DNA of 56,778 nucleotides from Candidatus Poribacteria bacterium (GCA_012270875.1 JAAXHI010000253.1:1-56778), one strand, 5' to 3'. Shown: positions 3,301 through 15,040, numbered from the stretch's first letter. Notes: a model not told the origin generated them from the sequence alone. Made by a program: numbers and translations.

Positions 3301-3386
3301 TGCCGGGAAAGGGGCTCGAACCCTTACGCGCATAATGCACACTAGACCCTGAACCTAGCCTGTCTACCAAATTCCAGCATCCCGGC
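3301..3386 (-). tRNA. tRNA-Leu (anticodon CAG), class II with long variable arm, no encoded CCA
   Basis: The reverse complement folds as acceptor GCCGGGA/UCCCGGC, D-loop GAAUUUGGUAGA, anticodon stem CUAGG/UCUAG with loop UUCAGGG, a 16-nt variable arm, and T-arm AAGGG-UUCGAGC-CCCUU. It is nearly collinear with E. coli tRNA-Leu(CAG). Confidence 0.92.
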
Positions 3387-6722: not shown

Positions 6723-9065
6723 CTATACAACCTCTAAGTGTTTATGTCGTGTTCTACGACACAGTTCATCAAAATCAGCACGTCCTTTCAGATTATACTC
6801 CCCATCTAAGCTTTGTCTTAAAAGGTTTTCCCCTGTAAGAACCAATATCTGATTATCAGAACGACCAACTAACTCGGAAAGAGATTGTTTCTCTACCTCG
6901 GTCAAATTACTTAACTTTCCGAAAGCGAGAATTGCTTGTGGGAATTTTTTACCAAGTATTTCCATTTTCTCAATATCTCCATCCGTAAAATCCCTAAACG
7001 TTTTACATTCAGCAAATATGGTCTCAATGTTATCCCTCCCAAGCATTTGAAAAAACAAGGCAAGATCAAATTCCTTCCCAACAATTTTTTCTTCATCTTG
7101 ATCAGTAATATCCTGTTTTTTTAGGTTGAAACTCATAAGTGGTGTTATTGAACCATCCAACATTTGGCGGTCAGAAAAAAATCGCAGAAGTAGAAGTACG
7201 GTATAAGCCCCTTCAGATTTGCTGGGCGAGTCAAACGCTCCTATTGTTCGATAAGCCCACTTAATGTTTTTGCTAGGGTTGAACGGAAATTCAAAGGGAC
7301 CAAAACACCGAGGACATTTCAACATATAACCTGCATCATCTATGGAGAACCATGACTTTTGTTTACAATTTGGACAAGACGCTCTCATACCGGGTTGTAA
7401 AACGTTCGCGTCAACGAGTCTCTTGAGAATATTCTCCGTATCATACTCAAGATTTTCTCCATCATTAGACCTTTCTTGTAAGATTCTGTTAAGTTTCGCC
7501 CAAAGTTTTTCTTGCGATAGGTTTTTTCCATTATTCATTTTATCCAACAAACCTATAATACCTTTGATTGCCAAAACCTGAGAAAATCGAATTCCGAGTC
7601 TTTTTATTATTTGAGTAACGATGTGTCCGGCATTTGAAATTTCGAGTTCCCACCCATGAGACTTCATCCAACTATCAAAAATCACTTCAGATGGGGGTGA
7701 CCATATCTGATAATCTTGTTCTGGTTCGTATACTAAACGGACTAAATTATTTTTTGAAGCGCGGAAATTGGTATCAGATTGAAAGAATAAAGACAAGTCT
7801 TTGAATCCTTCAGGTAATACAGACGTAGTTATTAATTTGTCGTTATAGAAACTAAAGTAAATTTCATTAGCAAAGCGAGGCGTATGTGTAGGCGATGATT
7901 TGGTTTTTATGTTTGGTGAAAGTGTTTTCACAATCACTCCATCATTGGAGGGTTGATCAAATATATCATGGTACGCCGTTCCGGCACTAAAACTACGCAT
8001 ACCGCGCGTGTCGTCAACCGGTAATTTTCCCCACATCGGCGGATAATCCCCCTGAAATTGCATATATTCATTTGAGTTGAAAAATTCATTGAAGAACTCA
8101 AGGAATTCTTCATCAGATACAGAACTACTTTTGATAACTCTACGATAAAACTCAACAGCTCTTATCCATGCTATAGAATCCGACTCAGCATTATCTGAAT
8201 TTATAGCATTTCTGCCAATAAGGTTCAAAACAAAACTTCTTATACTTTCCTCCTGTGCAAATTGCTTTGGTATGGCGTATACTGTTCGGCAAGTAGCCCG
8301 TAGATTCCAATAATCAATAATATCAATAGGTTTTTCGGCATCAAAGAAAAAAATGACACTCTGACCCGAAGAAATTCTAGAGAACCCTAAACTGTTTATT
8401 CCCATTAAATATACGCGTCTACTACGGACTTGATCTGTGAACAAGTAATTGGGACTATGATCAGTTTGAGCCCTGATGTATTCCACATAATTTGACGCGG
8501 ATATGTCAACCGATTCAACGCTTAAATGATTCTGAAACTTTTGTTCAAGTATCTCAGTAATTGCTTCAGGGAGCAATCCGAAAAGACTGGATAATAAAGG
8601 ATATGACGAATCATCAAAGCGAGGTATGCATATTTCCAGTGGTGTCCCCATAATGTCAAACTCAAACTCATTATTTTTTAGATAATGGGACAATGTTTCA
8701 AAGATATTGATTCCATAACCGGCTGTGCCATCTATCTGTGCTCCCGCCAGAAAGATTGATGGATGATCAATTATGCTTCTATCGCCGAGATTTAAATCGG
8801 AGTTAGAGGATTCTCCCATTGGTACTACACAATCTGGATCGAAATTATTCAAATATCCCGAAACAACGTCTTGAGGAGTAATGCCCCGACAATCATACCA
8901 ATTTTCTATGTTCTGCTGAAAAACTGGAATTATTGCATTAAATTTACCGCTCCATAAAAATGTATTAATTTCTATAACACGTTGAAGTGAATCAACATCC
9001 GTTGGATCTACAAGAAAAGCGTGTCTAATTGGTCTTGTGTTGATGCTAACAATGCCATCTCTCAT
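6723..9065 (-). CDS. 780-aa orphan protein with an unrecognised N-terminal 560 aa, a CxxC-N16-CxxC zinc ribbon and a PD-(D/E)xK-like C-terminal module (candidate nuclease / defence effector)
   Basis: An uninterrupted 2343-nt ORF sits in visibly AT-rich DNA. The zinc ribbon is CPNCKQKSWFSIDDAGYMLKCPRC (aa 564-587). EFDLALFF (D667) and IFAECK (E686, K688) fit a PD-(D/E)xK core. The functional call is inference. Confidence 0.6.
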   Translation of the reverse strand: MRDGIVSINTRPIRHAFLVDPTDVDSLQRVIEINTFLWSGKFNAIIPVFQQNIENWYDCRGITPQDVVSGYLNNFDPDCVVPMGESSNSDLNLGDRSIIDHPSIFLAGAQIDGTAGYGINIFETLSHYLKNNEFEFDIMGTPLEICIPRFDDSSYPLLSSLFGLLPEAITEILEQKFQNHLSVESVDISASNYVEYIRAQTDHSPNYLFTDQVRSRRVYLMGINSLGFSRISSGQSVIFFFDAEKPIDIIDYWNLRATCRTVYAIPKQFAQEESIRSFVLNLIGRNAINSDNAESDSIAWIRAVEFYRRVIKSSSVSDEEFLEFFNEFFNSNEYMQFQGDYPPMWGKLPVDDTRGMRSFSAGTAYHDIFDQPSNDGVIVKTLSPNIKTKSSPTHTPRFANEIYFSFYNDKLITTSVLPEGFKDLSLFFQSDTNFRASKNNLVRLVYEPEQDYQIWSPPSEVIFDSWMKSHGWELEISNAGHIVTQIIKRLGIRFSQVLAIKGIIGLLDKMNNGKNLSQEKLWAKLNRILQERSNDGENLEYDTENILKRLVDANVLQPGMRASCPNCKQKSWFSIDDAGYMLKCPRCFGPFEFPFNPSKNIKWAYRTIGAFDSPSKSEGAYTVLLLLRFFSDRQMLDGSITPLMSFNLKKQDITDQDEEKIVGKEFDLALFFQMLGRDNIETIFAECKTFRDFTDGDIEKMEILGKKFPQAILAFGKLSNLTEVEKQSLSELVGRSDNQILVLTGENLLRQSLDGEYNLKGRADFDELCRRTRHKHLEVV

Positions 9066-9105
9066 AAGAAATCACTGGTCCTTAGACTGTAGAACTCCCC
9101 GATCT

Positions 9106-9169
9106 GATACTCTTAAAATCCCCGTAATCTGTGTAATCCATGATAATCCGCGATTCAGACAGTAGGCAG
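9106..9169. repeat. Family-C intergenic repeat, copy 1
   Basis: It shares GATACTCTTAAAATCC..AATCTGTG..TAATCC(A/G)TGAT..TCAGACA with the copy at 11475-11537. It lies 4 nt 3' of a minus-strand stop codon. Confidence 0.8.
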
Positions 9170-9172
9170 TCA

Positions 9173-9442
9173 TTATAAAATACCTTGCGCTTTCAATCGT
9201 GAAATTAGCTCGGCTTGTGTGCCTTTCCCCTTTGTGGAATTGCATGCACCGCAGAGGAGTTGTAGATCGTCTTCTGTGTCTCTCAATGTTTCACCTGCTG
9301 CGTCGCTGCCGATGGGTGCTGCGTAGTTACGATTGGAATTGAACGGCGGGTCGAGATAGATCAGATCGACGGATTCGGTGTCTATGCCTCGCAAGACGGG
9401 TAGGTTGTCGTTTGAGAAGATGGTTCGGTTTTGGACATTCAT
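9173..9442 (-). pseudogene. Internally deleted N6/N4 DNA methyltransferase remnant (89 aa)
   Basis: The N-terminus DNLPVLRGIDTESVDLIYLDPPFNSNRNY carries motif IV (DPPF). It is joined directly to an HNH-like C-terminal tail, LQLLCGACNSTKGKG. The SAM-binding and target-recognition middle is absent. Confidence 0.65.
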
Positions 9443-9529: not shown

Positions 9530-9838
9530 ATGTTTAAGGGTAGTTTACATGATCCTTCGGGTGTCAAGATAGCTGATCTTAGAGAAATAACTCCATTGAA
9601 AGGTGAATTAGTCGAAATGGAAACGGCACGTATACATGGAAATCAATATGTTAGTCGCTTTCCGGTATTTGAAGATGTAAGTTTTTCCGTAAAAGGTACT
9701 GCATCTAAAAAAATTCGCCCAGGTCAGAATGTCACGTTAAAATCTGGTGTTGAATTTGATCCCGTGCCTTACACTGTTGAATCTATCATTCCATCAGATG
9801 ATGGGGCAATGTCTTTTAGTGCAAAACTTAAGCGTTAA
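9530..9838 (+). CDS. Hypothetical protein (102 aa)
   Basis: A strong RBS (GAGGAGGTG) sits 8 nt before the ATG, and a palindromic hairpin follows the stop. I recognise no motif. Confidence 0.5.
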   Translation: MFKGSLHDPSGVKIADLREITPLKGELVEMETARIHGNQYVSRFPVFEDVSFSVKGTASKKIRPGQNVTLKSGVEFDPVPYTVESIIPSDDGAMSFSAKLKR

Positions 9839-9846
9839 ATCACACG

Positions 9847-9877
9847 TAGGTTGGGTTGCACGGTTCAACCCAACCTA
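9847..9877. repeat. Family-A palindromic element (12-bp perfect stem TAGGTTGGGTTG / CAACCCAACCTA)
   Basis: A hairpin lies directly after the stop at 9838. The same arms form the terminal inverted repeats of the 250-bp element at 34636-34885. Half-sites occur near 11377-11398 and 19211-19227. Confidence 0.8.
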
Positions 9878-9932: not shown

Positions 9933-10060
9933 TTTGAAGTCTTCAAGGTTTCCGTATAAAATCCGATTCGGTTAGGAAACCGAACCTACCAGCCCTGGGT
10001 CCGAGGTGGTTTTTCTTTTTAAATTGACACTTATGGTGGGGTTAAAAAACCGCACCTACC
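9933..10060. repeat. Family-B composite intergenic repeat, copy 1
   Basis: The pattern ..GGTTTCCG(T/C)(A/G)TAAAATCCG(A/G)TTCGGTTAGGAAACCGAACCTACC.., a spacer, then TTCTTTTTAAATT(G/A)ACAC(T/C)TATGG..GGTTAAAAA(A)CCG(C/A)ACCTACC is also at 35000-35130. The core is a 9-bp hairpin, GGTTCGGTT-AGGA-AACCGAACC. Confidence 0.85.
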
Positions 10061-10073
10061 ATTGGAATGGATG

Positions 10074-10769
10074 CTACTTCATCTGTTTTTTTATCTGGTC
10101 TATAAGCTCTGCATCTCCTGTTTCTTGTGCTAAACCGAGTGCTTTCTGAAAATCCTGTTCTGCCTCGGTATCCCGCCCTAATTCTTTTTTAGAAGTCCCT
10201 CGGTTGAAATATGGAAATAGATAACCAGGATTTATGCAAATAGCCTCGTCATAGTCAGAAATTGCGGAATCATGGTGCCCAAGTTTTGCCTTAGTACTTC
10301 CTCTATCATTGTATGCTATGTCATTTTCAGGGTCTAAACGAATGACCACGTCTAAATCGGATATTGATTCAAAATATTGTCCTATGTCACTTTTCGCAAC
10401 GGCACGGTTGCGGTAGGCATTCACAAATTCAGGATCAAGTCTAATAGCAGCGTCAAAGTCATAGATAGCCTCTTTGGGGTGTCCTAAATTGTACTTCGCG
10501 AGCCCTCTGTTATAATAGGCGACCGCGAAATTAGGGTCTAAACGGAGCGTCTCGTCATAGTCAGAGACGGCTTCAAAGTATTGTTTTAAAAGGTATTTTG
10601 CGTTCCCTCTGTTATTATGAGCGTCCCTATTATTAGGGTCTAAACGAATAGCAGTGTCAAAGTCAGAGATAGCAGCACCATAATCTTCCTGATCGCATAA
10701 CTTTTTACCTTTCTCAATGTAGTTCTGAACAGATTTGGCAGTGTTCTTAGGGGAATTATCTTTTTTCAT
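10074..10769 (-). CDS. Tetratricopeptide (TPR) repeat protein
   Basis: Six or so 34-aa units repeat the pattern A..DFD.AIRLDPN...AY.NRG.AK. Confidence 0.85.
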   Translation of the reverse strand: MKKDNSPKNTAKSVQNYIEKGKKLCDQEDYGAAISDFDTAIRLDPNNRDAHNNRGNAKYLLKQYFEAVSDYDETLRLDPNFAVAYYNRGLAKYNLGHPKEAIYDFDAAIRLDPEFVNAYRNRAVAKSDIGQYFESISDLDVVIRLDPENDIAYNDRGSTKAKLGHHDSAISDYDEAICINPGYLFPYFNRGTSKKELGRDTEAEQDFQKALGLAQETGDAELIDQIKKQMK

Positions 10770-10779
10770 CTGGCTTTTC

Positions 10780-11250
10780 CTATACGGGTTCGGATGGTCT
10801 ATTATCTCTTAAAATTCTTTGCCCCATGTCTTCATCCGATCCTTCTCTGATTTCGGCAGCTATCTCGACACTGTTCCGCTGGTTAAGGCGATCTCGTAAC
10901 ATGAGAACAAGGATAGGCGCAACAATCAACGTGAAAATCCCAACGATGATCGCTATTAAAATATTCACTTTTGTATTTAGGACAGCCACTTGTTTGTCAA
11001 GTTCATCAAATTTTTCGTCAAGTTCACCAAATTTTTCGTCAAATTTCTTGTCAAGTTCACCAAATTTTTTGTCAACATGCGTGCGCATTTTATCTTCGGA
11101 TTCTTCTATTTTCTCAAGAATCTTTTCAAATTGCGATTGTGACAGCACAGTAGGCTGTTGCTCCTGTTGTCCATAAGCAGTAAAGGTGATCGAAAGGATA
11201 AAGAGTATTCCGAGAATGCTCCGAAGCGTTGCTTGTATGTTTGATATCAT
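10780..11250 (-). CDS. Membrane-anchored coiled-coil protein with DKKF/DEKF repeats
   Basis: It has an N-terminal signal/anchor. The repeat KKFGELDKKFDEKFGELDEKFDELDK is followed by a C-terminal TM helix. Confidence 0.65.
   Translation of the reverse strand: MISNIQATLRSILGILFILSITFTAYGQQEQQPTVLSQSQFEKILEKIEESEDKMRTHVDKKFGELDKKFDEKFGELDEKFDELDKQVAVLNTKVNILIAIIVGIFTLIVAPILVLMLRDRLNQRNSVEIAAEIREGSDEDMGQRILRDNRPSEPV
10996..11075. repeat. In-frame 21-bp tandem repeats within the CDS
   Basis: gtcaagttca(t/c)caaattttt(c/t) occurs 3 times, plus a 12-bp partial unit. Confidence 0.85.
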
Positions 11251-11474: not shown

Positions 11475-11537
11475 GATACTCTTAAAATCCGCGCAATCTG
11501 TGAAATCTGTGTAATCCGTGATTCAGACAATGGCGGG
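11475..11537. repeat. Family-C intergenic repeat, copy 2
   Basis: See 9106-9169. This copy lies 34 nt 3' of the aspC-like stop codon. Confidence 0.8.
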
Positions 11538-12890: not shown

Positions 12891-13073
12891 TTAAGCCAAA
12901 TGTTTCTCTGCCTTTTCCTTCCGATGGCCCGAGTAATCAACGTATTTCACGCCCTGATTCATACGTTTCTTTTGCTGTTTCATTAGAAATTCCATATATG
13001 TTTCTAAGTCACCAAAGAGAGCAACGAGACGCGCTTTGGCTTCTTGGATGTCTTTTACGGGGTTATCACACAT
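12891..13073 (-). CDS. Small partner protein of the PIN-like gene (putative antitoxin-like, 60 aa)
   Basis: It overlaps the upstream PIN-like gene by 19 nt. It is a helical, charged small protein. The function is inferred from context. Confidence 0.45.
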   Translation of the reverse strand: MCDNPVKDIQEAKARLVALFGDLETYMEFLMKQQKKRMNQGVKYVDYSGHRKEKAEKHLA

Positions 13074-13552
13074 GAGAGTTCCTCCAATATTCCTTCAGGA
13101 GAGTCAATACGGGGCGGCTGATATCCCGCCTCATGACAAATCTGTTCAATTTTAGGTAATGTTCGTGGATTTGCAAGGTGTGCAAAGTTCCAAGTTGCTA
13201 AATAAGGGACAAGATGTCTTGCAGCAACCGCTACGTGGACGGCATCGGTAAATGCTACTTGTGGAATTGCCTTTCCATCAACTAACCATTGGGCAAACGC
13301 GAGATCTGAATCCTCAACAACCAAATTTGGGAGCCCTTCAACCGCTTCTAACCTATCTGTCACTTGAAGATTATCACCAACTGATATTTCAGCAATAACA
13401 GCATCCGACACAATGAATTGGAAACGAGTATCACTCCAAAACTCACGAGTGATGTTTTGCCATCTTGCGATTTTGGGGTCGCGACTTTGTCTGGCAACTA
13501 AATTGCTCGGTATCGTCGCATCAATGTAAACGTCAATGTAAGTCTGATCCAT
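13055..13552 (-). CDS. PIN-like domain protein (VapC-type toxin-like)
   Basis: Acidic positions sit in IDATIP, SDAVIAE and FTDAVHVAVAA. TWNFAHLAN resembles the C-terminal T-x-N-x-x-H/D motif of PIN-like nucleases. Confidence 0.55.
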   Translation of the reverse strand: MDQTYIDVYIDATIPSNLVARQSRDPKIARWQNITREFWSDTRFQFIVSDAVIAEISVGDNLQVTDRLEAVEGLPNLVVEDSDLAFAQWLVDGKAIPQVAFTDAVHVAVAARHLVPYLATWNFAHLANPRTLPKIEQICHEAGYQPPRIDSPEGILEELSCVITP

Positions 13553-13626
13553 CTGCGATGCCCTGCATGCTTTTTGTAAGTATACCCATCATTACACAAA
13601 ATTGCAATCTTTTTGTCCAATTGAGT

Positions 13627-13731
13627 TTAGATGACATCTACGCCATCAGCGATCAACGCGTTAATTTTCGCGGTGATCGCCAAAGTGGACGATGGCGTTA
13701 CGTTTTGACTCCGTTGTGATAATGAGATCAT
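13627..13731 (-). pseudogene. Relic 5' end of aspC (34 codons, then a stop)
   Basis: It translates to MISLSQRSQNVTPSSTLAITAKINALIADGVDVI*. It keeps the same RBS as the functional gene. Confidence 0.85.
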
Positions 13732-13743
13732 TTGTTCTCCTTT
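13633..13743. repeat. 111-bp direct repeat, copy 2
   Basis: See 12660-12770. Confidence 0.95.
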
Positions 13744-13811
13744 GGAAATAGGTTTTGCGTTTAATTATGATAGCGAGGCGGATTACACTTACTTCGATAC
13801 AATCCTCTTTT

Positions 13812-14129
13812 TTAGCCTCTCAGACTTTCGTAAACGGTATCATGTTTCCCGATCGAAAACCAGACGAAACCTTCCTCGTCTTCAAATGCCACCGCTCTAT
13901 ACCCTCTGGTAACCCTGACGGACCAATAGTTGTAGCCCTCAAGTTTCTTGAAATTAAGGGACGGATCGCTGGGATTTTCTTTGAGCAGTCGAAATTGTTT
14001 GTCGGCGAGTCTTTGAACCTCTGATGGAAGTCTTCGATAATGCCCCCAAAAACGGTGCGTCGTCTTGTGGACGACCCTTGGGAGCTCAATGCTCGATTTA
14101 TAGATATTTGAATCTCCCCGCCTGGACAT
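13812..14129 (-). CDS. RelE/ParE-superfamily toxin
   Basis: KLEGYNYWSVRVTRGYRAVAFEDEEGFVWFSIGKHDTVY is the typical RelE/ParE C-terminal pattern. The start is set at the ATG at 14129, and the ORF extends to 14159. Confidence 0.7.
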   Translation of the reverse strand: MSRRGDSNIYKSSIELPRVVHKTTHRFWGHYRRLPSEVQRLADKQFRLLKENPSDPSLNFKKLEGYNYWSVRVTRGYRAVAFEDEEGFVWFSIGKHDTVYESLRG

Positions 14130-14433
14130 CTTTAAGTGCTTCCTCGCGAAGCTGCTCAAGTTTTCCGGCTTTCACGTCTGCCTCAAATTTCTTTTCCCAT
14201 GCTTCTTCTTCGGCAACCAATGCCTCGTGAAGTTTATTCTCGAGGGTTTTCAGAAGCACTTTTTGTGTAGGCTCCTCACACTTGACTTTTGGAACATCTG
14301 GGATCCACCCAAGCCAACGCGTTCCATTTCTTCGGATGTGAGCCGTATAGGTCTCCTCGAAGACCTTGTCATGAATGTTGACCTTTTTTATTTTTTCTAT
14401 AGTTTTCTCCTCGCGCAAACGTGAGGGTTCCAT
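14098..14433 (-). CDS. Putative cognate antitoxin (HicB-like fold plus addiction-module C-terminal helix)
   Basis: It overlaps the toxin start. The ORF runs to 14574, but that would overlap the upstream gene by 100 nt. I therefore chose the MEPSRL start at 14433. Confidence 0.5.
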   Translation of the reverse strand: MEPSRLREEKTIEKIKKVNIHDKVFEETYTAHIRRNGTRWLGWIPDVPKVKCEEPTQKVLLKTLENKLHEALVAEEEAWEKKFEADVKAGKLEQLREEALKDVQAGRFKYL

Positions 14434-14473
14434 AAACGTTTTCACTAATTCTCTTGCCGGTTTGCTAAGTTGC

Positions 14474-15040
14474 TTATGCGTTCTGCCGACTAGAAAGTTT
14501 AGCCTTCTTTCGCCGCCTTGCAAATCTCGCTCGGCTTGTGCGATTGATTCTAAGTTCATTTTCCACTTTGGCAACGAGTTCTATTGGCTGTTCTACACCG
14601 ATCCCAACCTTGAATTGATTATGCGTAATTTCTTTGAACCGATTTTGCCTCAAGTTCTCATAAAATTTCCAATCCTTAGGATCCGTGCTGTTAGCAAATA
14701 CTCCGAGAGGCGTATCGGTTGCGCAGAGATAGGACTGTAACTGATCACGTCCGTAGGTTATGACTCCCTTCCGTTTGCACTCTGCGATAGCGACAAAGTT
14801 TCCTACCCTATCAAGAATCAGAATATCAGCTCTACGTTTATCGGACCCCATCTGAATGTCAAGTTCTGTCTCAATAAAAAGCTGCCGGAATTCAGGTTTA
14901 GAGAAATAGTTGACAACTGCCTCTACTACTATGGCTTCACGTGGGGCCTCCGTACGACAATCAGGACACAACGTGAAGCGCGGATAACGAGGTTGAGAAC
15001 GCGAATGCAGATGGCACAATACTGTTTCTAAATCTCTCAT
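14474..15040 (-). CDS. Stand-alone HsdR_N-type (PD-(D/E)xK) restriction-endonuclease-like domain protein
   Basis: ADILILDRVGNFVAIAECKRKG...GRDQLQSYL matches the type I restriction R-subunit N-terminal nuclease-domain motif (D...E-x-K). Confidence 0.7.
   Translation of the reverse strand: MRDLETVLCHLHSRSQPRYPRFTLCPDCRTEAPREAIVVEAVVNYFSKPEFRQLFIETELDIQMGSDKRRADILILDRVGNFVAIAECKRKGVITYGRDQLQSYLCATDTPLGVFANSTDPKDWKFYENLRQNRFKEITHNQFKVGIGVEQPIELVAKVENELRINRTSRARFARRRKKAKLSSRQNA

Follow-up and report, generated by a model that had tools for sequence, protein, structure and literature searches.

What does a long, AT-rich gene without any annotated relative do when it stands intact beside the remains of a DNA methyltransferase gene? 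This question is raised by a stretch of 56,778 nucleotides (nt) from Candidatus Poribacteria bacterium (GCA_012270875.1, JAAXHI010000253.1:1-56778), the whole of which is called the window below. On its minus strand, positions 6723-9065 encode a protein of 780 amino acids (aa), here named X, and the next gene upstream on the same strand (9173-9442) encodes just 89 aa. An earlier note on this DNA had placed both open reading frames (ORFs) at exactly these coordinates and had suggested that they form an undescribed defence or restriction-like module. Judged by its ORF, its homologues and its structural model, X is complete and belongs to a large family that has escaped annotation. Its mobility between species and its tendency to adjoin restriction-modification (R-M) genes make it probable that X is a defence enzyme of a new type, directed against phages or plasmids. 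The note's conclusion that X acts by a non-classical logic is probably right, though for other reasons than the ones it gave.

The gene is set apart from its surroundings by base composition. The G+C fraction (GC) is 0.36-0.39 in each 500-nt interval between 6.75 and 9.0 kb, against 0.50-0.57 in the flanking sulfatase gene and 0.50-0.53 in aspC. Over the whole gene, GC is 0.375 and GC at third codon positions (GC3) is 0.31, the latter being 0.60 in the sulfatase and 0.55 in aspC. Both the sliding GC and the GC3 are deviant, and the AT-rich island that the earlier note had seen in sampled lines is therefore confirmed. A milder low-GC zone (0.39-0.41) runs on to about 11.25 kb. The ORF is real, as had also been claimed, since the chance of 780 codons without a stop at the base composition of X is about 1.4e-25. 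When X was compared with its allele in a related Poribacteria genome (locus L010), the ratio of nonsynonymous to synonymous divergence (dN/dS) was 0.24, against 0.04-0.13 in housekeeping neighbours; X is under purifying selection, which is looser than that on these neighbours. The identical X protein was observed on contigs of six metagenome samples, and on every one that reaches far enough, the 89-aa ORF lies upstream of it.

X had been described as an orphan, a term that does not hold. A word-indexed search with X gave 261 homologues, and HMMER, run exhaustively against 1.84 billion cluster representatives, gave at least 1,543 clusters (50% identity) at E <= 1e-3, with 349 at E <= 1e-30. Family members typically have about 780-830 aa; the best 150 listed clusters are mostly 720-900 aa long and align over almost the full length of X. 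Scanning one genome per GTDB species yielded 59 X loci (labelled L0xx), which span Poribacteria, Planctomycetota, Chloroflexota, Verrucomicrobiota, Patescibacteria, Desulfobacterota, Nitrospirota, Acidobacteriota, Gemmatimonadota, Ignavibacteriota, Bacteroidota and Proteobacteria. Homologues are carried by cultured strains too, including Methylobacter tundripaludum SV96, Luteimonas sp. BLCC-B24 and Flavivirga amylovorans KACC 14157. Family members occur on two plasmids. A homologue is found on a Photobacterium damselae plasmid; the copy on a Bradyrhizobium plasmid, at first a partial match, is a divergent full-length member and stands among toxin-antitoxin (TA) and abortive infection (Abi) genes.

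Despite this spread, the family is missing from the annotation resources. All named homologues carry the source name "hypothetical protein". X matched nothing in Pfam or NCBIfam except for sub-threshold zinc-ribbon matches, and a Pfam search with 46 family members gave no match beyond weak zinc-ribbon ones. Against PADLOC-DB v2.0.0 (5,027 component models), 0 families were found at E <= 0.1, and neither phmmer with X nor a family profile (at E <= 10) found a match among the PDB sequences. The statement that X matches no characterised family thus stands. A profile of the C-terminal module retrieved only unannotated proteins without a precomputed Pfam domain, and no other domain architecture. 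A stand-alone short form of this module, of about 395 aa, was considered and rejected; the two loci concerned (L068, L069) are frameshift-split full-length genes. X is not in any curated family, and the family, its zinc-ribbon-nuclease module and, above all, its 560-aa N-terminal region are undescribed. A PD-(D/E)xK defence nuclease in R-M-rich islands is, as such, an already familiar kind of system.

The architecture of X was modelled with AlphaFold2 (AF2) from a 104-sequence alignment, with a mean predicted local distance difference test score (pLDDT) of 75 and a predicted template modelling score (pTM) of 0.73. Conservation was counted over 140 divergent representatives with 25-40% identity to X, and also in 46- and 104-member alignments. 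Residues 556-595 (7281-7400, minus strand, like all parts of X) carry a CxxC-N16-CxxC zinc ribbon with C564, C567, C584 and C587, as the earlier note had read it. The four cysteines are invariant or nearly so in the family alignments, at 100% of the 140 representatives, and lie among predicted beta-hairpins (556-592); weak zinc-ribbon Pfam matches recur in 6-7 of the 46 members. With two CxxC knuckles on hairpins and four conserved cysteines, the element is a zinc ribbon by its predicted structure, and metal binding is predicted.

Following the ribbon, residues 600-750 (6816-7268) make up a predicted domain of the PD-(D/E)xK restriction-endonuclease fold, judged from topology, conserved residues and fold matches. 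The AF2 core runs alpha-beta-beta-beta-alpha-beta (helix 620-636, strands 639-649, 665-673 and 681-688, helix 695-707, strand 712-717) at pLDDT 85-93. In this model, E665-x-D667 opens the second strand and E686-C-K688 lies on the third, which is the canonical PD-(D/E)xK layout. D667 is conserved in 100% of the representatives and E665, E686 and K688 in 99%; D697 and E725 are likewise conserved, and the domain has 20 of the 50 positions conserved at >=90%. A Foldseek search of the PDB gave Cdn1 (9u49_A) as the best match (E 8e-6, probability 1.0) and MspJI as the second (probability 0.94), followed by the nuclease domains of PspGI, EcoT38I, MUS81, Avs4 and DdmD. In the BFVD library, matches of about 100 columns at probability 0.94-1.0 were to proteins named restriction endonuclease, and weaker ones were to Mrr-domain, T7 endonuclease I and RPB5 proteins. 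The nuclease-like core had been placed correctly from the sequence, and the predicted fold and its matches agree with that placement, a restriction-endonuclease-like C-terminus being what the note itself had set as the test. X is thus a plausible member of the PD-(D/E)xK superfamily by fold and motif, not by sequence profile.

The N-terminal half is of a different kind. Residues 1-135 (8661-9065) are modelled as a first Rossmann-like alpha/beta lobe (pLDDT 74-93) with conserved R11, W38-G-G40, N43, P47, P77-D78 and G118. A second alpha/beta lobe is predicted for residues 140-335 (8061-8648), where G163, D248 and W253-N254-L255-R256-A257 are conserved; its patch is the most conserved one of the N-terminal region, at 95-100% in the representatives. 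Next comes a beta-rich domain (residues 346-456; 7698-8030) with predicted strands at 362-369, 377-380, 398-407 and 434-454, pLDDT 52-76 and conserved P384, N400 and P418, which found no fold match in the Foldseek search of the full-length model. The last part before the ribbon, residues 457-555 (7401-7697), is helical by predicted secondary structure (pLDDT 73-89; W466, S477 and G480 conserved), and is possibly winged-helix-like.

A CARF-like lobe was tested because the structural alignment with Cdn1 spanned 565 columns. For this, residues 1-345 were modelled separately from a more diverse alignment, reaching a pTM of 0.79. No CARF protein was found in the top 50 matches of this model against the PDB (Foldseek), and the idea of a CARF-like sensor was rejected. 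The best E was 8e-3 at probability 0.14, none of the PDB matches exceeded probability 0.51, and template modelling (TM) scores were <=0.30; the top, non-significant matches were the pyruvate kinase C-domain, glutamate racemase and LacI/PBP-type proteins. By the model, the N-terminal 345 aa are a two-lobed alpha/beta module without a confident structural relative. Its strikingly conserved residues look like a constant ligand, catalytic or interface site and not like a hypervariable DNA-specificity element.

The small upstream ORF was taken by the earlier note for a methyltransferase gutted in frame, and the alignments bear this out. Protein alignment and DNA breakpoints identify positions 9173-9442 (minus strand) as the remnant of a 460-aa fusion of an N6_N4 methyltransferase with an HNH domain. 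It retains aa 1-50, including the DPPF motif, and the C-terminal ~33 aa of the HNH domain. Relative to L010, and also to L011, exactly 1,110 nt (370 codons) have been lost in frame at the junction 9275|9274. Positions 9442-9275 of the window correspond to L010 8514-8681, and those from 9274 onward to L010 9792 onward, with just an imperfect short microhomology at the junction. In the protein and DNA alignments to L010, the 89-aa ORF has no intact S-adenosylmethionine-binding and catalytic domain. Its Pfam scores are sub-threshold, the PADLOC model MTase_II matches aa 4-40 at 7.5e-7, and its composition is host-like (GC 0.49, GC3 0.52).

Is the methyltransferase the partner of X? The 460-aa methyltransferase-HNH gene lies directly upstream of X, in the same orientation, in L010 (X 91% identical), L011 (82%) and L007 (80%), and the intact homologue of L010 scores 1.9e-42 for N6_N4_Mtase and 1.5e-13 for HNH. 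A methyltransferase homologous to that of the window was observed near X in only 6/59 loci. The intact methyltransferase-HNH genes have a GC3 of 0.47-0.49, against 0.28-0.31 in the neighbouring X genes. The syntenic site between aspC and the sulfatase was compared in five related Poribacteria genomes. Both genes are intact in L010, both are largely deleted in L044 and both are split in L007; in L011 the methyltransferase-HNH is intact and X has two deletions, and in the window the methyltransferase is dead and X is intact. As every intact/dead combination occurs, the site is a variable hotspot with two genes that turn over independently. The view of the two genes as a co-transferred pair was rejected on the grounds of composition and co-occurrence. 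The adjacent methyltransferase is probably not the cognate partner of X, and the 89-aa ORF is probably the dead remnant of an unrelated methyltransferase-HNH gene in the same variable hotspot. The earlier note had argued from the decayed partner to a non-classical mode of action. That inference is unsafe because it assumes a cognate pair, and the rarity of the pairing, the GC3 contrast and the full set of combinations speak against one; what stands, and is supported, is that X can do without a cognate methyltransferase next to it.

The intact copies at L010:8514-9896 and L011:8417-9799 are of interest in themselves. A beta-class N6_N4 methyltransferase and a C-terminal HNH domain share one 460-aa chain in both, which is an unusual architecture, and the protein might itself be a one-protein R-M system or a selfish element.

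Across the family, X has no conserved partner, as no neighbour cluster occurs in more than 6/59 loci. The Pfam families that lead among the 116 proteins of the nearest genes (positions 1-2 from X) are N6_Mtase, ResIII, Methylase_S, Type_ISP_C, SWI2_SNF2, Eco57I, SLFN_AlbA_2, N6_N4_Mtase, DUF1156 and AAA_15/21. At a distance of 5-8 genes, the 116 proteins are topped by housekeeping families (periplasmic binding proteins, PD40 repeats, sulfatases), and R-M is represented by at least 2 N6_Mtase matches, one of them a Type ISP enzyme. R-M proteins thus number about 15/116 near X and 2-6/116 far from it (p = 8e-4 to 0.03), the far count being a lower bound taken among the top 25 families listed. 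With this far-gene control, the scored neighbourhoods are of the defence or R-M type that had been suspected from the window.

The R-M neighbours are diverse. Type I genes surround X in the order hsdR, small ORF, hsdS, X, hsdM in L038, in the order hsdR-hsdS-X in L027 and L043, and in the order hsdS-hsdR-YgjP-X in L026; an HsdS-containing fusion lies upstream of X in L057. Type ISP enzymes are convergent with X in L013, L015 and L056, DUF1156 and DUF499 genes stand beside it in L012 and L017, and N6_N4 methyltransferases homologous to that of the window occur within 3 genes of it in L009, L022 and L064. The Type I-linked X genes form one sub-clade of 52-65% identity across Desulfuromonadota, Nitrospirota, Acidobacteriota and Gammaproteobacteria. 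Since this sub-clade spans four phyla, the Type I-linked cassette moves horizontally. The links with Type ISP, DUF1156/DUF499 and N6_N4 methyltransferases fall in other clades of X. Further neighbours include a NERD and a Schlafen-type helicase protein (L039), SLFN_AlbA_2 (L024), an AAA_21/AAA_15 ATPase (L032), a PIN-TPR protein (L025) and Cap15, an effector of the cyclic-oligonucleotide-based antiphage signalling system (CBASS), in L008. The most frequent PADLOC defence matches among the neighbours are mad2 and mad5; these might point to MADS-type methylation-associated systems but probably reflect generic similarity to N6-methyltransferases and ATPases. In the two Poribacteria loci with DUF1156 (about 940 aa) and DUF499 (about 920-950 aa), the pair adjoins X at L012:5919-11680 and from L017:12491 onward.

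X is also mobile. Its GC is below that of the surroundings in 41/45 loci, with a median difference of -6.8 points, and the family tree is incongruent with the taxonomy. X of the window and its allele at L010:10001-12343 share 92.6% nucleotide identity, with a synonymous divergence (dS) of 0.20, while every clearly syntenic flank gene of the two genomes has a dS of 0.52-1.12, so that X is 2.6-5.6 times lower. From this difference, the X allele has been shared more recently than the chromosome around it, which suggests a recent exchange of the X allele alone between Poribacteria lineages. The gene is deleted or frameshifted in the genomes of many relatives. A patchy distribution, a foreign composition, exchange between lineages, frequent loss and R-M neighbours are, in combination, what usually marks a defence gene.

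In about 7 loci (L007, L042, L056, L059, L062, L068, L069), the X homologue is split into 2-4 adjacent ORFs by frameshifts. Several of these come from long-read assemblies, and the splits may reflect genuine gene decay or sequencing errors at homopolymers of AT-rich DNA.

With all this considered, we lean towards reading X as a solitary, methyltransferase-independent defence nuclease, a view held with somewhat better than even confidence. It is proposed that the helical domain and the zinc ribbon would hold nucleic acid, presumably DNA, and that the PD-(D/E)xK site would cut it with a divalent metal. The N-terminal two-lobed module and the beta domain would decide when or what to cut. As the first choice, X would recognise foreign DNA by some property of it, for example a modified base, in the manner of Type IV enzymes; alternatively, it might bind a conserved cue of infection. 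Either way, it may complement classical R-M, as do Mrr, McrBC and TgvAB beside or within Type I loci. The Type IV-like logic is ranked first because a solitary PD-(D/E)xK enzyme that accompanies a Type I locus or lies within it is typically of that kind, and it explains how X tolerates the loss of the neighbouring methyltransferase. Within the umbrella of a solitary defence nuclease, modification-dependent cleavage is nevertheless a tentative assignment. By trigger, Type IV-like logic is followed by cue-activated abortive infection and then by a PrrC-like guard, with a classical methyltransferase-protected endonuclease or a non-immune role the least likely. A bolder proposal, which we also put forward only tentatively, is that immune nucleases made of a single protein form a new class of which X is the founder. 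Its structurally unprecedented N-terminal module (the two alpha/beta lobes with their R11/D78/D248/W253-N254-R256 patch, plus the beta domain) would then be a new sensor or reader of DNA modification or of an infection ligand, unrelated to SRA, EVE, CARF and SAVED, which licenses a PD-(D/E)xK nuclease anchored by a zinc ribbon.

Several points weigh against the reading of X as a defence nuclease. The defence role of the family is deduced from sequence, model and context, and the nuclease call is made from motif conservation and predicted structure. Sequence profiles found no solved or curated PD-(D/E)xK relative in Pfam, NCBIfam, PADLOC or the PDB sequences, and in hhalign comparisons of X with HSDR_N_2, NERD and HSDR_N proteins, all probabilities were < 1% and non-significant. 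The PD-(D/E)xK superfamily is notoriously divergent, and for this reason the failed profile match lowers the confidence in a nuclease only slightly. The substrate could be RNA, because the best fold match, Cdn1, is an RNase. No modified-base reader fold (SRA/PUA-like, EVE, YTH, Mrr_N, DUF262 and similar) and no sensor fold was found in the N-terminal 560 aa by Pfam or among the top Foldseek matches of the full-length and aa 1-345 models; the beta-rich domain, covered within the full-length model at pLDDT 52-76, may still hold a reader fold. As for the context, about 60% of the loci have no recognisable defence gene among their identifiable neighbours, some neighbours are plainly housekeeping (a PALP enzyme, an acyltransferase, an FGE-sulfatase), several of the R-M associations are not independent events, and the far-gene count in the control is, as stated, a lower bound.

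The rival that survives best, although we consider it unlikely, is that X is an effector of abortive infection activated by a cue. The N-terminal module would bind a small molecule or phage ligand and switch the nuclease on allosterically, following the logic of Can2/Card1/Cdn1, Cap4 and NucC but without a dedicated signal synthase. It would suit such an effector that the best fold match is the CARF-nuclease Cdn1, and that R11, N43, D78, D248, W253, N254 and R256 are kept at 95-100% across hosts, which fits a constant ligand or catalytic site over variable DNA recognition. The lobes also bear a weak likeness to two-lobed modules that bind ligands or act allosterically (pyruvate kinase C-domain, LacI/PBP, glutamate racemase), which points the same way. 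However, the model of the N-terminal part alone finds no CARF or SAVED protein in the PDB, genes that would make a signal (cyclase, Cas10, TIR or others) do not recur beside X, and the Cap15 effector is present in one locus only.

It is improbable, too, that X has no immune role and is a nuclease of a mobile element or of DNA metabolism (repair, recombination or element maintenance) that hitch-hikes in variable regions. The many loci without a recognisable defence neighbour, the transposases or integrases near some copies and the two plasmid-borne copies could be understood in this way. Yet no link to integrase, transposase, relaxase or replication genes recurs, and the gradient between near and far genes is specific to R-M genes. 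X is patchy, non-essential and often decayed, and a search of 50,697 phage records gave no homologue; the latter result counts against such a non-immune role and is neutral for the defence reading.

Quite improbable is the proposal that X guards an R-M system, as PrrC does with EcoprrI, being kept silent by an intact Type I (or other) R-M complex and set free when an anti-restriction protein of a phage disables that complex. X is co-oriented and near-contiguous with hsdS in L038, L027 and L043 (gaps of 0-75 nt), which is also the position of prrC in the prr locus, and the Type I cassette has spread across four phyla. Nevertheless, Type I genes are near X in only about 6/59 loci, and no intact R-M system adjoins X in the window and in most relatives. 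The R-M partners are of at least four unrelated types, for which reason a specific protein-protein guard is hard to reconcile with them.

The least probable rival makes X the restriction subunit of a classical Type II-like system, cognate to the methyltransferase-HNH, in which case X would now be inactive or another methyltransferase elsewhere would protect the genome; the co-oriented pairs and the three loci with nearby homologous methyltransferases speak for it, but the pairing is rare, the GC3 values differ, four intact/dead combinations share one site, the genotype of dead methyltransferase and intact X persists in six samples with all conserved residues kept, the methyltransferase already has its own HNH nuclease, and Type II endonucleases are hypervariable, whereas the 800-aa architecture of X is uniform across the family and its N-terminal motifs are invariant. 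The solitary defence nuclease remains the reading that we prefer.

The rest of the neighbourhood shows how variable this part of the window is. A direct repeat of about 56 nt (about 91% identical; 2 copies in the 56.8-kb window, 0 expected by chance) was detected on the plus strand by a repeat search, immediately upstream of X at 9106-9161 and just downstream of aspC at 11475-11529. The pair flanks 2.4 kb of variable cargo, comprising a gene for a coiled-coil/transmembrane protein, a TPR gene, a 102-aa ORF and the methyltransferase remnant, and the same pair is present in L010 (6933-6981 and 9905-9960). The repeat could be an att-like duplication or a duplicated promoter or 5' untranslated region. 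The 102-aa ORF (9530-9838, plus strand) has a weak Multi_ubiq match and otherwise no family match. The segment 9443-10080, which is missing from L010 and L007, has terminator-like hairpins at 9847-9877 and 9965-9986. In the mildly low-GC zone at 10074-11250 (minus strand), the gene of a 231-aa TPR protein contains four or more in-register DNA repeat units of 102 nt, and that of a 156-aa coiled-coil/transmembrane protein has tandem repeats of 33 nt. Both evolve fast, being 64-67% identical in amino acids to their L010 counterparts (dN/dS 0.32-0.44), and are absent from L007.

The earlier note had also put the island at the head of a stretch rich in TA and nuclease genes. That cluster, at 12.9-15.0 kb, is separate and lies beyond the housekeeping gene aspC. 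On the minus strand (12891-15040), it encodes a weakly PIN-like protein of 165 aa with an overlapping 60-aa ORF, a ParE-like toxin of 115 aa (Pfam 3.6e-7) with a 158-aa ORF upstream, and a PD-(D/E)xK protein of 188 aa of the HSDR_N_2 family (8.4e-9), whose motif ADILIL...AIAECK resembles that of X. A different set of small ORFs occupies this position in L010. The sole tRNA gene of the window, tRNA-Leu(CAG) at 3301-3386 (minus strand), is separated from the 3' end of X by 3.3 kb that hold the sulfatase, GGACT and Laminin_G_3 genes, and is probably not the integration site of X. An Rfam search at the island borders found no RNA family.

If the reading is true, X represents a widespread defence family with hosts as diverse as Poribacteria, candidate-phyla-radiation bacteria, Proteobacteria and Bacteroidota, and with copies on plasmids. 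Censuses of defence genes that are based on Pfam, NCBIfam and PADLOC models would then under-count it, because all three miss X. The family would be a sizeable blind spot of defence annotation, yet many other candidate families exist; should the reading fail, X would be one more uncharacterised nuclease. It is easy to test, being a single gene of about 800 aa with clear catalytic residues and homologues in cultured strains, and a phenotype would lead to a new recognition or sensing module, as the N-terminal 560 aa have no detectable relative. The Poribacteria locus, in turn, offers a natural series of intact and decayed X and methyltransferase-HNH genes, useful for studying the turnover of defence hotspots in uncultured sponge symbionts.

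How does X compare with the systems already known? The N-terminal domain of HsdR and the HSDR_N, HSDR_N_2 and NERD proteins have the same motif arrangement, D ... E-C-K, and hhalign pairs ADILIL...AIAECK of the HSDR_N_2 protein in the window with EFDLALF...IFAECK of X, at a non-significant probability of 0.9% (E 0.06). Unlike the HsdR-type proteins, X has no helicase or ATPase domain. Cdn1 is an effector of the Can2/Card1 family, in which an N-terminal CARF domain is followed by a C-terminal PD-(D/E)xK nuclease (PMC12825302). X resembles this family in joining an N-terminal Rossmann-like alpha/beta region to a C-terminal PD-(D/E)xK nuclease. It differs in that its lobes, when searched alone, do not match CARF, and in its extra beta, helical and zinc-ribbon domains and twice the size. 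The PADLOC CARF_PDDEXK models do not match X, and no Type III CRISPR-Cas or cyclic-oligonucleotide synthase was found among the neighbours of the 59 loci.

PrrC and RloC are ATPase-anticodon nucleases, and TgvAB consists of DUF262/DUF1524-type proteins; the domains of X are unrelated to these, and X is Type I-linked in only about 10% of its loci. Where it is linked, it shares with them an intra-operon position (hsdS-X-hsdM in L038; hsdR-hsdS-X in L027 and L043) and a presumed part as a second line of defence beside Type I restriction. In V. cholerae VPI-2, the Type IV system TgvAB (GmrSD-type) is embedded in a Type I operon and complements Type I restriction (PMC11411939).

X works most like the Type IV, or solitary, restriction nucleases. 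X is about twice as long as MspJI or Mrr and has a four-cysteine zinc ribbon before the nuclease; its 560-aa N-terminal region shows neither an SRA-like nor an Mrr_N winged-helix reader in the Pfam and Foldseek searches, and it has no sequence similarity to the Type IV models of Pfam or PADLOC. X lacks the adjacent, co-inherited methyltransferase that marks a Type II system, and, as in Type IV, no cognate methyltransferase is required or co-inherited. The mrr and McrBC genes of E. coli adjoin the Type I hsd genes, and X, too, sits beside hsd genes. Like MspJI and Mrr, X is a single polypeptide with no cognate methyltransferase and with its predicted PD-(D/E)xK domain at the C-terminus.

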